Source: Bacteroidota bacterium
GTDB lineage: Bacteria; Bacteroidota; Bacteroidia; Flavobacteriales_F; PHOS-HE28
Length of the DNA: 64,000 bases
Direction: 5' to 3'
NCBI GenBank assembly: GCA_014584605.1
Contig: JACTMO010000066.1
Span: 42,923-106,922 of the forward strand
In this document: positions 1 to 10,548 of the stretch, piece after piece
Layout: each line of letters opens with the position of its first letter
How positions within the stretch are numbered: the first letter of the stretch is position 1
Position numbers and translations under genes: made by a program
Notes under the pieces: generated by a model
Databases searched by the model: none
Told to the model about the DNA's origin: nothing
The model's input: the letters and a program-made list of their open reading frames with translations, nothing else

Positions 1-369
1 GGTGGTGAGCTTCTCGCTTTCGGCGAGCCGCATGCTCTCCTTCAGGTAGTCCGCACGACGCGCCACCGTGGTGGGGAAGGCGAAGCCCGTGGTGGCCTGC
101 AGGTTGATGTCCGATCGGTACGGCCCCTGGATCTGTCCTTGCATGAACTGCACGTTCAGTGGCTGCAGCTCGAGGGCCGACTTGCGCAGGACTTCCTGCT
201 CCTGCACCTTCAACGCTGCGGCGGTCATGCTCGGGTGGTTGCGCAAGGCCCGGGCGATCACCGTGTCCAGGGTGACCGGTGCCTGTGCGTGAGTGTTCGC
301 GCCGATCAACAGCGCCGTCATCGTGGCAACAACCGCAGTGCGCGGCGCACGCGGCCGACCGGTGCGCAT
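1..369 (-). CDS. TolC-like outer-membrane efflux protein (OMF), N-terminal portion only; gene continues past the left window edge
   Basis: Minus-strand translation gives a signal-peptide-like MRTGRPRAPRTAVVATMTALLIGANTHAQA followed by PVTLDTVIARALRNHPSMTAAALKVQEQEVLRKSALELQPLNVQ...ADYLKESMRLAESEKLTT, a typical OMF N-terminus. It lies in the same frame as the upstream czcA with no intervening stop. Start assumed at the ATG complement of 367-369. Confidence 0.5.
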   Translation of the reverse strand, partial: MRTGRPRAPRTAVVATMTALLIGANTHAQAPVTLDTVIARALRNHPSMTAAALKVQEQEVLRKSALELQPLNVQFMQGQIQGPYRSDINLQATTGFAFPTTVARRADYLKESMRLAESEKLTT

Positions 370-3300
370 GAAGAGCATGTAGAGCGCAGGCAGCACCACG
401 AGGGTGAGCGCCGTGGCCGTGATCAGGCCGCCGATCACCACGGTGGCGAGCGGCCGCTGCACCTCCGCGCCCGCGCTGCCGCTGAGGGCCATGGGCAGGA
501 AACCGAGCGAGGCCACGGAGGCCGTCATCAGCACGGGCCGCAGGCGGATGCGCGTGCCTTTCAGCACCCGTTCCTCCAGGTCGGTGATGCCTTCGCGCTC
601 CAGCTCGTCGAAGGTGGCGATGAGCACGATGCCGTTGAGCACGGCCACACCGAAGAGCGCGATGAAACCCACGCCGGCGCTGATGCTGAAGGGCATGTCG
701 CGCAGCAGCAGGGCCGCCACGCCGCCGATGGCGCTCATGGGGATGGCCGTGTAGATGAGCAGCGCACGTTTCACGCTATGGAAGGTGAAGAAGAGCAGGA
801 GGAAGATCAGCAGCAGCGCAACGGGAACGGCCACGAGCAGACGGGCGTTGGCGGCGCGCAGGTTCTCAAAGGTGCCGCCGAAGGTGTAGGAATACCCGGT
901 GGGAAGGATCAGTTCGCTGCCCATGCGCTGCGCGAGTTCTTCCACGAAGCTCTCCACATCGCGGTCGCGCACGTTCACACCCACCACGATGCGTCGCCGG
1001 GCGTTCTCGCGGCTCACCTGCGCGGGGCCGTTCACCAGGGCCACCTCGGCCACCTGCTTCAGCGCGATCTGCCCGCCGCCGGGCATGGCCACCAGCAGGT
1101 TGGCCACGTCCTCGATACGCTGGCGCTGGTCCTGCTGCATGCGCACCACCAGGTCGAAGCGGCGCTCGTCCTCGTAGATGGCACCCGCCACCTCCCCGGC
1201 GAAGGCCGTGCGCAGCGCGCGGTTCAGGTCGGCGATGTTCAGGCCGTACTGCGCCACGCGCGCGCGATCGTAGGTGACGGTGATCTGCGGCAGGCCGGCC
1301 ACCCGTTCCAATTGGGGTTCGCCCGCGCCCTCTACTTCGCGCACCAACGCGGCCACCTTCGTGCCGAGCAGGGCCAGGGTGTCCATGTTGTCGCCGTACA
1401 CCTTCACGGCCACGTCCTGCCGTATGCCGGTCATCAGTTCGTTGAAGCGCATCTGGATGGGCTGCGTGGCCTCGAAGAACACACCCGGGATCACCTTCAG
1501 CGCCTTCATCATGGTGTCCTGCAGGCTCTCGCGGTCGCGGGCGGTCACCCACTCGTCCTTGTCCTTCAGGATGATCATCAGGTCGGTGGCCTCGGGCGGC
1601 ATGGGGTCGGTGGGGATCTCGGCACTGCCGGTGCGGCCCACCACTTGCTTCACCTCGGGGAAGCCCAGGAGGATCTTCTCCACCTTCTCGTTGTTGGCGG
1701 TGCTCATGCTGAGCGAAGCGCCCTGCGGCAGGATGCTGTGGAAGGCGAAGTCGCCCTCCTCCAGGGTCGGTATGAATTCGCCGCCCATGCGCGTGAAGGC
1801 GAAAAGGCTCGCACCGAAGAGAAGCACCGCCGTGACCACCACGCTGATCCGGTTGCGCAGGGAGAACGCGATGACAGGGCTGTACCAGCGCTGGAAACGG
1901 TCCATCATACGGTCGCTGAGGTTGCGCTTGTACGCCGTGTTGCGCGAGAGGGCCAGCGCGCTCATCATGGGCACGTAGGTGAGGCTGAGGAGCAGTGCGC
2001 CGATGATGGCGAAGCTCACTACGGCGGCCATGGGGCGGAACATCTTGCCTTCGATGCCCACCAGCGTAAGGATGGGGATGTACACGATGAGGATGATGAT
2101 CTCGCCGAAGGCCGCACTGCGGCGGATCCGGCTGGCGCTGTTGTACACCTCCTCGTCCATCTGCGCGCGGGTGAGCATTCTACCCTTGAAGCGTGCGTGC
2201 AGGTGGTGCAGCGTGGCCTCCACGATGATCACCGCGCCGTCCACGATCAGGCCGAAGTCGATGGCACCGAGGCTCATCAGGTTGCCGCTCATGCCGAAGA
2301 GGTTCATGAGGATGATGGCGAAGAGCATGCTGAGCGGGATCACGCTGGCCACGATGAGGCCCGCGCGCCAGTTGCCCAGGAAGAGCACCAGCACGAGGAT
2401 CACGATCAGCGCGCCCTCCAGCAGGTTGGTGCGCACGGTGCCGATCGCGCGGTCCACCAGGCTGGAGCGGTCCAGGTAGGGTTCGATCATCAGCCCCTCG
2501 GGCAGCGACTTCTGGATCATGGGGATGCGCTCCTTCACGGCCTTGATCACCTCGGCGCTGTTGGCACCTTTGAGCATGAGCACCATGCCGCCCACCACTT
2601 CGCCCTCACCGTTGCGCGTGAGCGCGCCGTAGCGCGGGGCGCTGCCGTAACCCACGGTGGCCACGTCGCGCACCAGCAGCGGCACGCCGTTGCTGCCGTT
2701 CTTCACCACCACCTGCCCGATGTCCTCGGGCGTGCGCAGCAGGCCGCTGCCCCGGATGCTGTAGCTGTTGGGCCGCTTCTCGATGTAGGCGCCGCCGGTG
2801 TTCTCGTTGTTCTTCTCCAGCGCGGTGAACACCTCGGCCAGTGTCACGCTCATGCTCTGTAGCCGCTTGGGATCGATGCTCACTTCGTACTGCTTCACCA
2901 GACCGCCGAAGCTGTTCACCTCGGCCACACCGGGCGTGCCCAGGAGCTGGCGCGCCACCACCCAGTCCTGGATGGTGCGCAGCTCCGCCGGACTGAAGCG
3001 CCCCTCGTACCCTTCGCGCGGATGCAGCGCGTAGTGGTAGATCTCGCCCAGGCCGGTGCTCACCGGGGCCAGGAAGGGCGTGCCCATGCCGGGCGGGATC
3101 TGGGCGGTGGCATCGCCCAGGCGTTGGTCCACCAAGGTGCGCCCGAAGTAGGTGTCCACCTTCTCCTCGAACACGATGGTGATCAGGCTGAGGCCGAAGC
3201 GGCTCACCGAGCGGATCTCCACCAGGTCGGGCAGGGAGGCCATGCTGCGCTCGATGGGCGCGGTGATGAACTGCTCCACCTCCTGCGCCGCCAGGGTGGG

Positions 3301-3462
3301 CGCGTAGGTGATCACCTGCACCTGGTTGTTGGTGATGTCGGGCACCGCATCGATGGGCAGCTGCGTGAGCGACCAGCCGCCGTTGGCGATGAGCAGCACC
3401 GTGAACAGGCCCACGATGGCCTTGTTCCGTATGGAGAACCGTATGACCGCGTCGATCATGGA
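370..3462 (-). CDS. czcA: CzcA/CusA-family heavy-metal efflux RND permease (about 1030 aa)
   Basis: Minus-strand translation from the ATG at 3462 reads MIDAVIRFSIRNKAIVGLFTVLLIANGGWSLTQLPIDAVPDITNNQVQVITYAP...AIDFGLIVDGAVIIVE..., the HME-RND signature, and ends ...VVLPALYMLF. No stop codon separates it from the OMF-like sequence that follows. The plus-strand 907-aa ORF at 139-2862 is its antisense artefact. Confidence 0.9.
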
Positions 3463-3563: not shown

Positions 3564-3929
3564 TCAGGCGCGCGGCGGGTTCCACTTGGAACCGGAGAAG
3601 GAAACGAAGTGCAGGGTCTCTTCGGCCGGGCTCAGCGCGATGGCGGCGCGGGACAGTACCAGGCGGAAGTTGCCGTGTGTCGATGCCAAGGCGATGCCGC
3701 TGCACGCGCAGAACACGTCCGAGCACCCATCGTCGAACGGCGTATGGTCGTGTTCGCCCGGCGGTAGGTCGGCGTGTTGGTGTCCTTCGCTGTCGTCGTC
3801 GTGGTGGCCGAAGTCGCTGTGGTGTTCCAGGATGTGCAGCACCACCTTGGGCACGCGCACCCACTCGTGCATCTCCATGGCGCTCCAGGCATAGAGGGCC
3901 AGGGTGAAGAGGAACAGCAGGCGGCGCAT
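3564..3929 (-). CDS. Small secreted His-rich protein, a putative periplasmic metal-binding protein
   Basis: Signal peptide MRRLLFLFTLALYAWSA, then a His/Asp/Glu-rich stretch (HILEHHSDFGHHDDDSEGHQHADLPPGEHDH). It is co-directional with czcA and immediately upstream of it. Confidence 0.55.
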   Translation of the reverse strand: MRRLLFLFTLALYAWSAMEMHEWVRVPKVVLHILEHHSDFGHHDDDSEGHQHADLPPGEHDHTPFDDGCSDVFCACSGIALASTHGNFRLVLSRAAIALSPAEETLHFVSFSGSKWNPPRA

Positions 3930-4093: not shown

Positions 4094-5746
4094 TCAATCC
4101 TTGATGAACCGTACGGTATGGGCTGAGGACGACGTTTGGATCCGGGCCGTGTAGGTGCCCGTGGGCAGGCTGCTGGTATCGATCGTGGTACTCCTGCCGA
4201 AACGGCCGGCCATACTTCCGAGGGTGTTCAACACCTCGATGCCGATGAGTTGCTCATTTGCAGGTATTTCGAAGGTGATACGCCCGTTGGTCGGGTTCGG
4301 CCAGGCGCGGACCGATCCGAGGGTGTCCCGTTCATGTACCCCCACATCGTTGTACAGCTTGCCGTTGCGGTAGATGCGCGCACCGTACAGGTTGCCGTCC
4401 GGGCTTTCCCAGAAGCTCACCACGCCGCCGTTGCCATCGGGCAGTTCCGTTCGCAATTCATAGAACGGGCCGTTCACCGTGGCGAACGATACGGCTTCCT
4501 CCCAGGCAAGGGTGCCATCGGGCCGCACACGCATGGCGCAATACATATGCGGGCCGCTCATGTCCATGATCGCGATCACGGCGCCGCTATCGCTGGGTAC
4601 CAGGCGGCTGGTGGGAATGTAGACGCTCTCGATGATGACGGGCAGGCCCGTGGCGGACCATTGTGGCGCACCGGTGGCGAGGTCGTGCCGCTGCACGTAG
4701 AGTCCGCTGCTGTCCGTACGGTCGTCAAACCAACTGGTGAACAGGCTGCCGTCGTGCACCATGGCGCTGAGCGCACCCTGGCCGGATGCGGCTTCGCAAA
4801 CAGGAACAACGGCCGGGGACCAGAGCGAGGACCCCGTGGTGTCGATGCGGTTCATCCGCAGATCACCGTAGTATTCCCATACGCTTGTCAACGCACCTTC
4901 GTCGTCCTTCGCGGTGGTGAACCCATACGCGAGACCATTGGCGTCGGCGACATCCAGATACGCGGGCCATACCGCGATGCCGAGGCTGTCGAAGCGCTGG
5001 GCTTTCAGGCACGTACCTGCTCCATTGGCGCAACGGATGTTGAACACGATCCCGCCCGCACCATCCGGATCGACGCTGTACGGGCCGATGTAGTTGGCCC
5101 CCACCGGTTGTCCAGGCAATGGGAAGTCCGTGGTGCCGTCCATGTGCAAGCGCTGCATCCGGCAACCGTATCCACCGCCGCTACAGCCTTCGCAATACGC
5201 GACCAGGAACGCGCAGTCGCCGCTGGCCACCAGTTGCATGCTGCGATAGTCCAACCCGACAAGCAAGGTGGAAGGCCCGGCCCACATGGCGCTCCCATCG
5301 GTGTTGAACCGCATGGCCCACACGGTATCCGCCGCATTGACACTGGCACCGGAAAAGAAGGACACGAGCACCGAGCCATCGGGCAGGAGCAACGCGGCCG
5401 TCTGGTTCACGCTGCGTCCGGGCTGGTCCCAGAGCAGTTCGCCGTTCGCCGCCCACAGCGCATTGCCCTCGCTGTCGAAATGCTGACCGTACAGTTGTGC
5501 GCGTGCGGCATCGTTGCGCAGGTCGCTCCAGAACGCGAAGTAGCCGCTGTCGGCATCGGAGATCGCGGTCAGGTGCCGCTGGGAGTTGGCGGCATTGCAA
5601 ACCACCATGGGAGCCGCGGGGTCAGTGCTCCATTGCGCCTGTGCGCGGTAGGCTGTGACCAGCAACAGCATGAGGGCGAGCGCAGTGACCAGGCAGCCCC
5701 AGATGGCCGCTTGGTATAGCCGTTCTGTGATCTTGTTGCGGTCCAT
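4094..5746 (-). CDS. T9SS-secreted repeat (beta-propeller-like) protein with a Por-secretion C-terminal domain (type A)
   Basis: N-terminal signal (…LVTALALMLLLVTAYRAQA), internal repeats of the form DGS..W / DG.G, and a C-terminus ...LPTGTYTARIQTSSSAHTVRFIKD typical of the Por_Secre_tail. Confidence 0.7.
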   Translation of the reverse strand: MDRNKITERLYQAAIWGCLVTALALMLLLVTAYRAQAQWSTDPAAPMVVCNAANSQRHLTAISDADSGYFAFWSDLRNDAARAQLYGQHFDSEGNALWAANGELLWDQPGRSVNQTAALLLPDGSVLVSFFSGASVNAADTVWAMRFNTDGSAMWAGPSTLLVGLDYRSMQLVASGDCAFLVAYCEGCSGGGYGCRMQRLHMDGTTDFPLPGQPVGANYIGPYSVDPDGAGGIVFNIRCANGAGTCLKAQRFDSLGIAVWPAYLDVADANGLAYGFTTAKDDEGALTSVWEYYGDLRMNRIDTTGSSLWSPAVVPVCEAASGQGALSAMVHDGSLFTSWFDDRTDSSGLYVQRHDLATGAPQWSATGLPVIIESVYIPTSRLVPSDSGAVIAIMDMSGPHMYCAMRVRPDGTLAWEEAVSFATVNGPFYELRTELPDGNGGVVSFWESPDGNLYGARIYRNGKLYNDVGVHERDTLGSVRAWPNPTNGRITFEIPANEQLIGIEVLNTLGSMAGRFGRSTTIDTSSLPTGTYTARIQTSSSAHTVRFIKD

Positions 5747-5859
5747 GCAGGAGGTAATGGGCGAGTGCATGATGCTGGCGTTGATGGATCGAAGCAAGCG
5801 CGGTGAGCGTCACCGGAAAAGCTGTTCCGAGTGAGTGGTCGCAATGCTGAGCGAGCGGA

Positions 5860-6594
5860 TCAACCCGCCAGCGCCCGCATCACCTCTTCCTTCTTCCTAC
5901 GGCTGATCTCCACGCGCATGCTGTTCTTCAGCACCACATGGCCATCGTCCAGGTGGGTGATCTGGGCCTTGTTCACCAGGGTGCTTCGGTGTACGCGCAG
6001 GAAGCCCAGCGGACCCAACATATCCTCATAGTCCTTCAGGGTGCGGGCACTGACGAAGCGTTTACCATCCGCGGTATGCAGTTCGGTGTAGTTGTCGTCC
6101 GCCGTGCAGTACGTGAGGTCCGCCGGAGTGATGAAGTAGGTGCGGTCGCCGCTGGTGAGGGTGAGCTTCATGGCGGCCTCATCACGATGGCCGATGTTGC
6201 TGAGGAACTGCTGCTGCATGGCCGAACGGTCCTGATCAGGGTGCCGCTGCTTGAAGCGAGCGAGGGCCAGCTTCAATTCATCGGGCTGCACGGGTTTCAG
6301 CAGGTAGTCCAGCGCGCTGAAGCGGATGGCCTGGATGGCGTAGCGCTGAAAGCCGGTGCAGAAGATCACCTCGAAGGGCCAGGAACCCAGTTGCTGTAGC
6401 AGGTCGAAACCGCTGCCGCCGGGCATCTCCACATCCAGGAAGAGCAGGTCGGGCTTGAGCGCACCGATGCGCTCGGCAGCTTGCGCGATGTTCCCCGCTT
6501 CGCCAAGGACCTCCACTTCCGGATGCGCCACCAGGATCCCCCGCAGGTAATCCCTGTTGGCCGCATCATCGTCCACGATCACGGCTTTGATCAT
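5860..6594 (-). CDS. LytTR-family response regulator (REC plus LytTR DNA-binding domain)
   Basis: MIKAVIVDDD...LLFLDVEMPGGSGFDLL (receiver domain), with a C-terminal LytTR fold (…FLRVHRSTLVNKAQITHLD…). Confidence 0.85.
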   Translation of the reverse strand: MIKAVIVDDDAANRDYLRGILVAHPEVEVLGEAGNIAQAAERIGALKPDLLFLDVEMPGGSGFDLLQQLGSWPFEVIFCTGFQRYAIQAIRFSALDYLLKPVQPDELKLALARFKQRHPDQDRSAMQQQFLSNIGHRDEAAMKLTLTSGDRTYFITPADLTYCTADDNYTELHTADGKRFVSARTLKDYEDMLGPLGFLRVHRSTLVNKAQITHLDDGHVVLKNSMRVEISRRKKEEVMRALAG

Positions 6595-6737
6595 CGCGTT
6601 CTGCTTGCCCGCAAGATAGAGGACACGCAGGACGCGGTCGCCGCGCACGAGGAACAAGGGACTTTGCTGTTGTGGTCGCCCCACGGTCTTCTGCATGGAT
6701 CACGGATCCAAGCGGTGATCACACCGTGATCGGTGCG

Positions 6738-8354
6738 CTATCGATCCGCCACCTGCAGCTTGCCCGTAGCGATGATCCCCTGATCCCTCAGAAGCCGGAA
6801 CACATAGCTGCCGGCTGCAAGGTCGCCGCGCGGAATGATGGTCGTGGTACCTGATACACGCTGCGTGTGCACCGATCGGCCGATGGCATCAAGCAGTACG
6901 AGCACGGTATTCGACGGCACGGCACCTTCGGGCAACTGCAAGATGGCGTTGTCGATCATCGGGTTGGGCGACAAGGACACGAGATACTCGTCGGCGATAT
7001 CCGCGATGCCCGTTGTACCGCAAACTGCCGCGGACACGGAGGCCGTACGATCCGTCATGGTCAGCGTGAGCGGTGCTTCGGAGGCCCATGGCCCCATGTC
7101 CTGGAAGGTCTGGTCCGGCGCTATCTGCGGCACCGACGCTTGGTACGATCCGTAGTCCTGGCTCGGACAATAGGGACAGGTGGAACCATCCGGGGCGAGC
7201 TTCAGGAGGCGCTGCACATAGTTGGTCGTGCCAGCGGTAAGGCCGGTCACCAGCAGGTCGCCATCATCAGCAATGGACACGCGTGAGAACCGGGAGTACA
7301 CGAGACCGGATGTGGGCGGGTACTGCTTGCTCCATTCAAGTTGGCCGTTGTTATCGAGCTTGGTGATGGTTGGAGCGATGTCATCATAACTGGGTGGCGC
7401 TTCCGTGGCTCTCCCAACTATCACATAGCCGCCATCCGAATGCGCGGTTATGCCCCAGCCTGTTGTCATGTCGGCTGTGGACACCTTGGTCATCCACAAT
7501 GGAGTACCCGCTGCATCAAGCGCCAAAACGGCAATTTGTGGCCAGGTGCCAAGCACCAGCTCATTGGACTTCCCTGCCAGCACGATGGTGCTATCGGGAC
7601 CGATGGTGACACCGAAGACATCGAACCCATGGGTCGTCGAGTTGTACCAATGCATCCATTCGGTCGCACCGGTAAGACCATCCTTCCGAACGACGAGGTG
7701 CGGCTGCTGGTAACCTTCGGCCCATCCGGCGAAGATCAGGTCGCCATTGGGCAATTCGGCAACGTCGGAGGCGACACCAGTGTTCCGGAACTCTCCGCTC
7801 CAAAGCAGATCGCCGTTAGCATCCGTGCGCAGCATGCAGTAGCTGCCTGGGAAGCCTGAACCGTTCGCGATTATCGCGAAGCCTCCGTCGGCGGTCTGCA
7901 TGAAATTATCGGAATATAAACTCCCTGTGAGCGAGAAGTCCGGACTGGCGTAGGTCTTGGCCCATACCATTGTGCCCGATGCGTCCAGCTTGAGGATGAA
8001 CCAACCGACCTGCGGTCCGGTGGCTTGATCAGCACCCGCGAGCACCAAGCCACCATCGGCGGTGGCTACCAAGGCTTGCGGGTAAATGTTGTCGTTGATC
8101 CCCGTGGTCCATTTGCGCATCCACACCAGATCGCCGTTCGCATCGAAGCGTGTCACACCGATCTCGTTGTACCCATCGTTCGATTCGGAGAAGGGGCCAG
8201 CGGAAGCGAATCCGCCATCGGCCGTTTGGACGAACCCGGCTTCGCTCAAGTTGTAGAATCCGCTTTCAACGACCATGCAGGTTTGTTGGAGCTGCGCCGA
8301 GGTCGTTCCGACCATAAGTGCGCTGATCAGCGAGAGGTACGTACGGATCTTCAT
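6738..8354 (-). CDS. T9SS-secreted repeat/beta-propeller protein with a Por-secretion C-terminal domain (type A)
   Basis: Signal peptide MKIRTYLSLISALMVGTTSAQ; repeated TADGGF/ADGG motifs; C-terminus ...GSYVFRLLRDQGIIATGKLQVADR. Confidence 0.7.
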   Translation of the reverse strand: MKIRTYLSLISALMVGTTSAQLQQTCMVVESGFYNLSEAGFVQTADGGFASAGPFSESNDGYNEIGVTRFDANGDLVWMRKWTTGINDNIYPQALVATADGGLVLAGADQATGPQVGWFILKLDASGTMVWAKTYASPDFSLTGSLYSDNFMQTADGGFAIIANGSGFPGSYCMLRTDANGDLLWSGEFRNTGVASDVAELPNGDLIFAGWAEGYQQPHLVVRKDGLTGATEWMHWYNSTTHGFDVFGVTIGPDSTIVLAGKSNELVLGTWPQIAVLALDAAGTPLWMTKVSTADMTTGWGITAHSDGGYVIVGRATEAPPSYDDIAPTITKLDNNGQLEWSKQYPPTSGLVYSRFSRVSIADDGDLLVTGLTAGTTNYVQRLLKLAPDGSTCPYCPSQDYGSYQASVPQIAPDQTFQDMGPWASEAPLTLTMTDRTASVSAAVCGTTGIADIADEYLVSLSPNPMIDNAILQLPEGAVPSNTVLVLLDAIGRSVHTQRVSGTTTIIPRGDLAAGSYVFRLLRDQGIIATGKLQVADR

Positions 8355-8445
8355 GACTGTGGTCTTTGTGCCACAAAAGGAACAACGGCTCCTCCAAGCA
8401 CCGAGGAACGCAGAGTGAGCGGTCGAAGGATCGAGGGAGCGGCGC

Positions 8446-10422
8446 TCAATCGAGGGTCAAGGTCACGCGAGTACCCTGCGGGCGATCGTCTTCATCCTTG
8501 AGGTCCTCCACAACGATCCCACCACGCTCGGTCATGCGCCAGGAAAGAAGTCGGAGGCGTTCGCTGGTGAGTTGCATGCCGAGGGAGCGATGGCCGGGCT
8601 CTTTCACGGGTGCCGAAGAGCCATGGCCGCGACCCACACCATTGTCCTCGATGACGCATCGGAAACCATCGCCGTTCGTGGTGAAGCGCACGCTGATCGA
8701 CTTGTCGCCCTGCTTTTCGGCGAGGCCATGCCACACTGCGTTCTCCACGAAGGGCTGCACCAGCAGGGCAGGGATCTCGGTCTCGTCGTCGAGCAGCTCG
8801 CGATCCGCCTCCACTTCGAAATGGAGCCCTTCCAGTCGGTGCGCTTCCAGCTTGAGGTATTGCCGCAAGAAGTCGACCTCCTCCAGGATCGATACGCGGT
8901 CGTTCACGCTGTGGTCGAGCACCATGCGCAGCAGGCGGGCGAACCCTTGGAGGTAGCCGAGGGCCTCCACGTTCTGGCCGGCCTGGGTCATGCGCGCTGC
9001 ACTGTTGAGGCAGTTGTAGATGAAGTGCGGGTTCATCTGGCTGCGCAGCAGCTTCATTTCCAGCAGGCCGTTGATCTCGGTGATCTCTGCGTTACTGCTT
9101 GCCAGTTGCTTGTTCAAACCTTCGAGCGCACTCGCATGTTTGCGCTTCTGCAGAAAGTTGCGCAGCAGCAGCAGCGCGGCCATGAACACGAGCGCCGCCA
9201 AGGCGATGCTGGCGTAGAATTTCACCTGCGCACTTCGGATCAGCGCGGCTTGTGCGGTGTTCTCCGCCCGCAGGATCGCGTTGTCCTTCTCCTTGCGTTC
9301 GGTATCGAATTCCGTGCGAAGGCGTGCGAGCTCCCGCTGCGTATCGGCACCCAGCAGGCTGTCCTTGAGGAACGCATGCCGTTCGAAGTGCGCGATCGCG
9401 GCATCGCCGTCGCCCATCTTGGCGTAGAGGCGGCCCAGGGCCTGTTCGTAGTCCAGGGTCAGCTGCGGTTCACCTGCGCCCGTGCTGAGCGCCAGTCCTT
9501 CGAGCAAGCGGGCTTCGCCGGTCTTCAGTTCGCCGAGCGCGACATGCGCGCTACCGATGCGCTGGAGCACGTACGCCTTGTCGATGGCGCTATGCACCGT
9601 GTCGTAGTGCGCGAGGGCTGAACTGTAGTGTGCAAGGGCTGAACGCGGATCCCGGGGCATGTCCAAGTCACCGAGATTCTCTTCAGCAAGGCCCCAGCCA
9701 TTATGGTCCTGGATCTTGCGGTAGGCCGTGATCGCCGCGGTGTATGCCGTCCTTGCGGATGTGGTATCACCTTGCTCCTTGAGGGTATTGGCCAGACCCA
9801 TCACGCAATTGGCCACCTTGCCGGGGCGGCCCAGGGCCTGCTCCAGCGCCATGGAACGTTTCAAATGCTCCGCGCTTTGCGGGTAGTCCTTGATCTTCCG
9901 ATAGGCGATGCCCAATGAATACAATGTGATGGCGACTCCGGCCGAATCCTTGGCCTGCTCGCTCAAGGTGAGTGACTCGTGGAATCGCTTCAAACTGCCC
10001 ACGCTGTCGCCACGTTTCTCGGCCAGCCATCCCAGGTTGCTGAGCACTACGCTCGTGTATTGAGGCACGCCGAGTTCCTGGAAGATCCCCAGGGCGATGC
10101 CCAGCAGTGAATCGGCACGGTCGAACTGGCCTTGCTCCACGGCGAGCCATCCGAGGTTGTTGTGCGCATCGCCAAGTGCCCGTGGCTGCTGGATCCGCTT
10201 GGCCAGTGCGAGGGCCTGGTCGCCTACGAGCCTCGCGCTATCGGGATCCGAGCGGATCAGGTTGAAGCAGATGCGGGCGAGGATGTCGGCACGCATCGTG
10301 TCGTTCTTCGCCGCGGCCAATTCCTGGTGTAGGCCGGGGATGAGCGAAGCATCCTGGCCCAGCGTGGCGGTGGTGCACAGGAAGGTCAGGAGACAGGGGA
10401 GAGCACCGCGCGACCAGGCCAT
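8446..10422 (-). CDS. TPR-repeat sensor histidine kinase of the LytS/YehU type (partner of a LytTR regulator)
   Basis: Signal/TM at the N-terminus, multiple TPR-like repeats (…NLGWLAVEQGQFDRA…), one TM helix (FYASIALAALVFMAALLLL), then the His_kinase H-box NPHFIYNCLNS and a HATPase region (…VENAVWHG…GVG…). The start is taken at MAWSRGALPCLL; an upstream ATG is possible. Confidence 0.8.
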   Translation of the reverse strand: MAWSRGALPCLLTFLCTTATLGQDASLIPGLHQELAAAKNDTMRADILARICFNLIRSDPDSARLVGDQALALAKRIQQPRALGDAHNNLGWLAVEQGQFDRADSLLGIALGIFQELGVPQYTSVVLSNLGWLAEKRGDSVGSLKRFHESLTLSEQAKDSAGVAITLYSLGIAYRKIKDYPQSAEHLKRSMALEQALGRPGKVANCVMGLANTLKEQGDTTSARTAYTAAITAYRKIQDHNGWGLAEENLGDLDMPRDPRSALAHYSSALAHYDTVHSAIDKAYVLQRIGSAHVALGELKTGEARLLEGLALSTGAGEPQLTLDYEQALGRLYAKMGDGDAAIAHFERHAFLKDSLLGADTQRELARLRTEFDTERKEKDNAILRAENTAQAALIRSAQVKFYASIALAALVFMAALLLLRNFLQKRKHASALEGLNKQLASSNAEITEINGLLEMKLLRSQMNPHFIYNCLNSAARMTQAGQNVEALGYLQGFARLLRMVLDHSVNDRVSILEEVDFLRQYLKLEAHRLEGLHFEVEADRELLDDETEIPALLVQPFVENAVWHGLAEKQGDKSISVRFTTNGDGFRCVIEDNGVGRGHGSSAPVKEPGHRSLGMQLTSERLRLLSWRMTERGGIVVEDLKDEDDRPQGTRVTLTLD

Positions 10423-10548
10423 GGGGTCCACAAGGTAGGCGGTACGGGTTCCGGGCGGCGTGTCCCTCGGCATCGCTTGACTTGCACCCCTCAAACCGAT
10501 CCTGTCGCTCCCACCCGAGCAGGTCGTTCCAGCACCTCCCATGGCAGG

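Follow-up and report, generated by a model that had tools for sequence, protein, structure and literature searches.

In the heavy-metal efflux systems CzcCBA and ZneCBA of Cupriavidus metallidurans and CusCFBA of Escherichia coli, each of the three components, i.e. pump, adaptor and outer-membrane factor (OMF), has a gene of its own, and the genes are arranged C-B-A (C-F-B-A in cus). Each OMF carries its own N-terminal signal, and CusC is a lipoprotein. Here we describe a czcA-czcC locus at the left edge of a 64,000-nucleotide stretch of DNA from a Bacteroidota bacterium (assembly GCA_014584605.1, contig JACTMO010000066.1, positions 42,923 to 106,922), referred to below as the window. Its products belong to the same families, i.e. 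the heavy-metal efflux (HME) branch of the resistance-nodulation-cell division (RND) pumps and the OMFs, and its relatives also encode a CusB/HlyD adaptor. The acidic motif in transmembrane segment 4 (TM4) resembles that of divalent-cation pumps, and a CzcI/CopL-like gene, a weak match, lies upstream. Unlike in the systems above, A and C are one open reading frame (ORF) and the gene order is A::C-B. The putative OMF signal is internal, of the signal peptidase I (SPase I) type and free of a lipobox Cys, and the TM4 motif ends in Ala and not in Asn.

The closest bacterial precedent known to us for the mechanism proposed below is FbcH of Bradyrhizobium japonicum. This cytochrome b/c1 precursor is reportedly translated from one ORF and split post-translationally at an internal signal-peptide site. 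It is said to join a multi-spanning inner-membrane protein through an internal signal peptide to a periplasm-facing partner, and its processing is said to have been shown experimentally; for the present locus, we infer it. The protein families are unrelated, and the second product of FbcH reportedly stays anchored in the inner membrane, whereas here it would have to cross the periplasm and enter the outer membrane.

Public databases already contain the gene, the exact protein and the two-domain architecture for many species, and they are ordinary for Bacteroidota. We found no paper on an RND-OMF or CzcA-CzcC fusion or on its processing in the literature searched, although absence there is no proof. 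The portions of a large review of tripartite pumps on which we draw (PMC8277102) mention SecDF and MacB fusions, and do not mention an RND-OMF fusion.

A single reading frame from czcA into czcC

Translation of the minus strand from position 3462 to position 1 gave 1154 codons without a stop codon. A sequence-only reading of the window had placed the czcA start at an ATG at 3462. An ATG-started ORF is indeed present on the minus strand, but 3462-3460 encodes Ser and the start Met is 3459-3457, which is in register with the N-terminus of the homologues (MxxRIIxFSIxNK). Of the fused gene, 1153 codons counted from the start lie inside the window. The RND part ends in ...VVLPALYMLF with F1030 (codon 372-370) and is followed by M1031 (codon 369-367); beyond F1030, the frame reads MRTGRPRAPRTAVVATMTALLIGANTHAQAPVTLDTVIARALRNHPSMTAA... 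up to position 1. As had been described, re-translation returned MRTGRPRAPRTAVVATMTALLIGANTHA and then an OMF start, QAPVTLDTVIARALRNHPSMTAA, still open at position 1.

The sequence-only reading had offered a sequencing or assembly error, a recent stop-codon loss and a genuine RND-OMF fusion as explanations. A protein identical to the 1153 residues in the window is deposited at NCBI (P0001, 1433 aa). The search for long CzcA proteins that had been suggested, counted over the best 120 protein matches to these residues, returned 113 proteins of 1346-1471 aa together with four complete unfused ones of 1046-1064 aa. Both PF00873 and PF02321 are recorded in all but a few of the long homologues, which include proteins of cultured Taibaiella and Chitinophaga species that are listed at NCBI as 'CusA/CzcA family heavy metal efflux RND transporter'. 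When species-representative genomes were scanned (one per species; best 80 loci out of at least 599 relatives), the frame was open from pump to OMF in 76 of the 80. Most orders of Bacteroidota are represented among the fused loci, which come from Flavobacteriales (Chryseobacterium, Flavobacterium, Bergeyella, Tenacibaculum), Sphingobacteriales (Pedobacter, Sphingobacterium, Mucilaginibacter), Cytophagales (Pontibacter, Dyadobacter, Fibrella, Algoriphagus), Chitinophagales, Saprospirales, Bacteroidales and Marinilabiliales.

An indel or assembly error, or a very recent stop loss in a pseudogene-like copy, would draw some support from the fact that we started from a single contig and that some metagenome-assembled genomes (MAGs) contain broken versions of the gene, such as the three ORF fragments at locus L087. 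However, at least three other, independent assemblies, all of nearest relatives with 94-95% identical proteins, share this frame, and it recurs across the phylum. Over the junction, the DNA of three of these assemblies is 88% identical to the window, and the only difference in the linker is an indel of net 3 nt that keeps the frame. Purifying selection is evident on both domains. A recent loss of the stop codon also disagrees with a fusion common to Flavobacteriales, Chitinophagales, Sphingobacteriales, Cytophagales, Bacteroidales and Saprospirales. On this comparison of sequences, artefact and recent stop loss are effectively refuted. With an identical database protein, fusion in 76 of the 80 loci and two complete domains, the fusion is genuine. 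The gene should be neither flagged as a frameshift nor split in two during annotation, and the name 'CusA/CzcA family RND transporter' hides the outer-membrane channel that it also encodes.

The broken gene at L087 (2355-6707, one MAG) consists of three ORFs of 574, 268 and 568 aa, and either long-read indel errors or a pseudogene would account for it. Single fused records also carry labels outside Bacteroidota: L070 (CP034120.1, Glaciecola amylolytica THG-3.7), by its label a complete gammaproteobacterial chromosome, L061 (a Gemmatimonadota MAG) and L055 (an Ignavibacteria MAG). The small residue followed by Gln that is discussed below for the linker is kept in two of them, as VGA/QS (L061) and AFS/QE (L070; slashes here and below mark candidate cut sites). 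These records could reflect horizontal transfer or mislabelling.

By its sequence, the RND half belongs to the HME-RND family without anything unusual, and it would act as a heavy-metal/proton antiporter. Pfam ACR_tran matched residues 6-1030 over profile positions 2-1020 of 1021 (945 bits), and TIGR00914 (CusA/CzcA) matched residues 1-1033 with 1160.3 bits against a cut-off of 701.45. Twelve distinct TM segments were obtained in a Kyte-Doolittle 19-mer scan, a simple hydropathy scan and not a trained predictor, with loops at ~33-343 and 557-873. These are the two large periplasmic loops predicted after TM1 and TM7 in the HME-RND pattern. In TM4, residues D401, F402, G403, D407, G408, E414 and A415 were invariant among 23 aligned fused homologues. 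The TM4 consensus of divalent-cation HME-RND pumps is reportedly DFGx3DGAx3VEN; the motif here ends in VEA as compared with VEN in that consensus, and this Ala is the invariant A415. The type of motif suggests substrates such as Zn, Co or Cd rather than Cu or Ag. The best solved relatives of this half were ZneA (4k0e, 675 bits) and CusA (604 bits), and none of the solved structures matched was of a fused chain. What is known of metal transport by HME-RND pumps is unchanged by the fusion.

The OMF half extends for 280 residues past the left edge of the window, as read from P0001. Residues 1031-1433 of that protein contain two OEP repeats (PF02321; 77.6 bits, cut-off 22). An AlphaFold (AF2) model of residues 999-1433, built on 17 aligned sequences, had a mean predicted local distance difference test score (pLDDT) of 80 and showed four beta-strands (104-110, 119-128, 294-304 and 310-318) and helices of up to 70 residues. 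The model gave poor definition in the region of TM12 and of the linker (pLDDT <50 for model residues 33-60). Foldseek matched the OMF model to SilC, CusC, OprM, TolC and other OMFs at E ~1e-15 and TM-scores of 0.67-0.71. Judged from the model, this half is a regular OMF and a complete protomer, not a remnant.

Among the close relatives, similarity to the window protein was discordant between the two halves, at 95% (RND) and 25% (OMF) for P0005, 86% and 24% for P0006, and 95% and 73% for P0004. These relatives have the linker n-region MR.G.PRAPR in common, which places the breakpoint of the OMF swap at or after the signal peptide. The pattern of similarity implies that the OMF module is exchanged like a cassette among RND backbones that are almost the same. 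The OMF type of the window (PLNVQFMQGQIQGPYRSDINLQATTGFAFPTT) is rare and divergent, with only 15 extra matches. No free-standing gene of this type was found among these 15, which are mostly short products of short contigs and are consistent with fused genes cut by contig ends. One candidate for a free OMF, P0128 (396 aa, L086), was rejected because its upstream in-frame sequence reaches TM12, as in a fusion cut by the contig end.

A candidate signal peptide in the linker

The linker of 28 residues between the two domains can be divided into three regions: n, MRTGRPRAPR, with a net charge of +4; h, AVVATMTALLIGA, which at 13 residues is within the ~7-15 usual for a signal peptide; and c, NTHA. 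SPase I is predicted to cut at THA/QAP, between A1058 (288-286) and Q1059 (285-283). A small-x-small/Gln site was present in 105 of 107 distinct linkers, and the other two read MHA/Q and MFA/Q. Position -1 was Ala, Ser, Gly or Cys in all 105 linkers scored. Elsewhere in these proteins, the motif has a frequency of 0.0054 per residue, which corresponds to ~0.11 expected per search interval of 20 residues. The n-regions are rich in Lys and Arg directly after TM12, with a mean net charge of +3.8 and a minimum of +1, and the distance from the last Lys or Arg to the cut site (h- and c-regions) averages 18.6 residues. In the alignment of 23 sequences TM12 is almost invariant, and within residues 1031-1128 Q1059 is the only near-invariant position; the junction alignment of homologues shows no other conservation of sequence in the linker. 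Taken as a 19-mer, the hydrophobic core of the linker has a mean hydropathy of 1.08, as compared with at least 1.55 for each of the 12 TM segments.

The alternative site AQA/P has Pro at +1, which SPase I rejects. A lipoprotein (SPase II) signal was ruled out, as neither the window nor most linkers have a Cys at +1. Gln at +1 of SPase I sites is a trait specific to the phylum Bacteroidetes, with a mean of 71% across species, and it is found at 77% in Ignavibacterium album (Bochtler et al, 2018; PMC5837995). The small residue at -1 and the Gln at +1 are the same here, in 105 of 107 linkers as compared with that 71% mean. The published signals were defined on N-terminal peptides, whereas this one begins at residue 1031, after 12 TM helices. 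In its sequence, the linker thus has every feature of an SPase I signal peptide of this Gln-at-+1 type (the Q-rule) except its position in the chain.

The OMFs of split relatives start with comparable sequences. The free OMF of L085 begins MKFFFTTVTMLGLLSCSVKGFT/QTQ..., and its ...SVKGFT/QTQMISIGQTIDLALKNNP aligns with the fused linker and OMF start; so does ...LLVCTTTFA/QQKISLE (...CTTTFA/QQKISLEKALEKAKSNN) in the free OMF of L037. From these alignments, the fused gene would be czcA joined to an entire czcC pre-protein that has kept its own export signal. L037, from Flavobacterium notoginsengisoli, encodes an orthologous RND and has the A-C-B order of the fused loci, with a stop codon and a 120-nt spacer between A and C. 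The unfused operon of L085, likewise with an orthologous RND, is ordered A-B-C, and its OMF follows the adaptor. Unfused RNDs of the L085-type group are 82-85% identical to fused ones. These two loci likely show the ancestral state, and their sequences point to a fusion or fission that is evolutionarily labile. The L085 contig (1-742 and 5001-10688) contains a fused copy (1459 aa, then an adaptor) in addition to the unfused A-B-C operon, so fused and split paralogues coexist in one genome.

Proposed processing of the fused product

In RND pumps, the C-terminus that follows TM12 lies in the cytoplasm, as in the structures of AcrB and CusA. From such an end, a positive loop followed by a hydrophobic segment would send the next domain across the membrane. 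We propose that the 12-TM pump is inserted co-translationally and that its C-terminus is left in the cytoplasm. The Arg-rich loop would stay inside, and the short hydrophobic segment would re-enter the Sec translocon as a start-transfer signal, with the following 375 residues exported through Sec. SPase I would cut at THA/QAP (window positions 286/285), a step that the sequence makes likely in our view. This would yield a pump of ~115 kDa, with the used signal peptide left at its C-terminus as an additional membrane segment, and an OMF of ~41 kDa whose N-terminal Gln would probably be turned into pyroglutamate. The OMF would then move to the outer membrane and join the pump trimer and the CzcB adaptor in an ordinary 3:6:3 tripartite exporter. 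Fusion would guarantee synthesis of pump and channel at 1:1. Taken as a whole, an account in which czcA::czcC is fused phylum-wide and its polyprotein is cut at A1058/Q1059, so that the pump stays in the inner membrane and the channel is set free, seems probable to us. We also lean, somewhat less firmly, toward the more general statement that Bacteroidota routinely make a transporter and its outer-membrane channel as one polyprotein that is split at an internal Q-rule signal after 12 TMs, with the OMF as an exchangeable cassette.

In a fusion, according to the sequence-only reading, the hydrophobic segment would have to act as a 13th TM helix that returns the chain to the periplasm. If it were a true helix and the fusion remained uncut, the OMF would work while covalently attached to the pump, and the assembly across the envelope would be non-canonical and more compact. 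The topology fits this proposal (12 TMs, a positive loop and a hydrophobic segment), and neither a cleavage experiment nor a solved fused chain speaks against it. The helix itself fares less well: a core of just 13 residues with an unconserved sequence is typical of signal peptides, and a conserved small-x-small/Q site with near-universal Gln at +1 would have no use in a permanent helix. Both observations favor cleavage.

Distances in the AF2 model bear on the same question. The N-terminus of the mature OMF precedes 33 helical residues (~50 Å) that rise to the barrel, and it would sit about midway up a helical barrel of ~105 Å. From the hydrophobic core to the first OMF helix there are ~9 residues, which can span 32 Å at most. 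The RND periplasmic head measures ~70 Å in AcrAB-TolC and CusCBA, and a tether must also span the lower half of the OMF. Combining the model with these published dimensions gives a distance of at least 120 Å. This is far too long for ~9 residues to bridge, and by this estimate no canonical pump could be built from an uncut chain. In addition, the closely related unfused pumps work with free OMFs, and this, like the OMF swaps, fits two separately functioning proteins. We therefore consider an uncut fusion quite improbable.

Two products could also arise if translation were initiated internally at M1031 (ATG 369-367) to make an ordinary OMF pre-protein, with the full-length read-through as a by-product or minor form. 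In the window and most of its close clade a Met directly follows TM12 (LF-M-R/G...), and 45 of 105 distinct linkers have an n-region Met, often within K-M-K and reminiscent of a relic MK... start. Initiation in Bacteroidota is independent of Shine-Dalgarno sequences, so that the sequence offers no means of judging an internal start. Its potential distribution can be counted, however: an in-frame ATG that leaves a charged n-region was present in only 27 of the 76 fused loci, and any ATG, GTG or TTG in only 41. Many linkers (e.g. SSKKK-ISAP... and SRRKKIK-PT...) have no usable start codon. With start codons in a minority, or about half, of the fused loci, internal initiation cannot be what maintains the architecture family-wide, and it leaves the absence of a stop codon in most sampled lineages unexplained. 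We regard it as unlikely.

Several points weigh against cleavage of a polyprotein and have to be set beside the evidence for it. SPase I normally acts on N-terminal signals, and bacteria are rarely known to have a cut behind a protein of 12 TMs. The proposed cleavage is read from the sequence, and the putative cut site was called by a simple -3/-1/+1 rule. The clade of the window has an ATG exactly at the junction, and this M1031 is kept in most of P0001-P0028, which leaves room for a separately initiated OMF in this clade. The geometric argument assumes that the proteobacterial tripartite architecture holds in Bacteroidota. No RND, CzcA or AcrB entries were found in the supplements of the Q-rule paper (PMC5837995). 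Finally, the adaptor gene needed for a tripartite pump is not inside the window, its expected place being past the left edge of the contig stretch.

If the proposed processing takes place, the fused gene would encode a polyprotein that naturally serves two membranes, and no such route of biogenesis is known to have been described for tripartite efflux pumps. It would provide a widespread, natural test case for how bacterial Sec and SPase I deal with a signal peptide that lies internally, behind a polytopic protein. It might also serve as one for whether covalent linkage fixes a 1:1 ratio of pump and channel in a phylum lacking translational coupling based on Shine-Dalgarno sequences. Cleavage is directly testable in cultured Chitinophaga, Flavobacterium and Pedobacter.

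Gene neighborhood

Positions of the fused gene and of the genes next to it are listed in the table.

Table. Features of the czcA::czcC locus and its surroundings, in window coordinates.
Feature	Position	Strand	Basis
OMF domain (CzcC/CusC/TolC-like), N-terminal 95 mature residues	1..285	-	identical full-length protein P0001
Linker, residues 1031-1058, read as a putative internal signal peptide	286..369	-	sequence, linker statistics, hydropathy
RND permease domain, residues 1-1030 of the fused gene; CusA/CzcA-family heavy-metal efflux transporter	370..3459	-	Pfam, TIGR00914, hydropathy
TM4 motif DFGLIVDGAVIIVEA, residues 401-415; putative acidic proton/cation relay motif as in divalent-cation HME-RND pumps	2215..2259	-	read from sequence
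Small upstream gene, 121 aa; N-terminal hydrophobic segment and His/Asp-rich stretch	3564..3929	-	ORF, translation
Protein with type IX secretion system (T9SS) C-terminal sorting domain, 567 aa	4094-5797	-	domain search
LytTR-type response regulator	5860-6696	-	domain search
TPR and His_kinase sensor	8446-10542	-	domain search
DUF5122 beta-propeller protein, 538 aa	within 4094-10542	-	domain search

The sequence-only reading was right that no adaptor gene lies between the His-rich gene and czcA, and it had considered the tripartite composition atypical for that reason. In the closest relatives (fused proteins 91-95% identical), an adaptor gene follows the fusion directly, which leaves the supposed anomaly unsupported and agrees with the suggestion that one might lie beyond the left edge. 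It is of the HlyD_D23/CusB type, encodes 386-459 aa and begins 12-470 bp after the fused gene. By analogy, the operon would consist of a czcI-like gene, czcA::czcC and czcB, with the adaptor gene downstream and off the window.

The small upstream gene is 94% identical to the gene at the same position in L002. Its product had no Pfam match and reached 16 bits against CopL, below the cut-off of 40; the L002 orthologue was likewise below threshold to both CopL and CzcI. On this weak assignment, the gene probably opens the operon and encodes a periplasmic protein of CzcI/CopL-like type that binds metal or acts in regulation. On its other side, the window differs from relatives L001-L004, in which a different gene (374 aa) adjoins the small His-rich gene. 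The T9SS sorting domain encoded further upstream in the window points to Bacteroidota as the source.

The two alternative frames around the junction had both been described as having no nearby stop. One is indeed open over all 600 bases, but the other has several stops, and at 65-68% GC an open frame of this kind is unremarkable. An ORF of 907 aa on the plus strand (139..2862) lies antisense to czcA. This and other long plus-strand ORFs over czcA were considered as genes and set aside as high-GC antisense artefacts. Both the 907-aa ORF and the open alternative frame are most likely consequences of the base composition and not genes.

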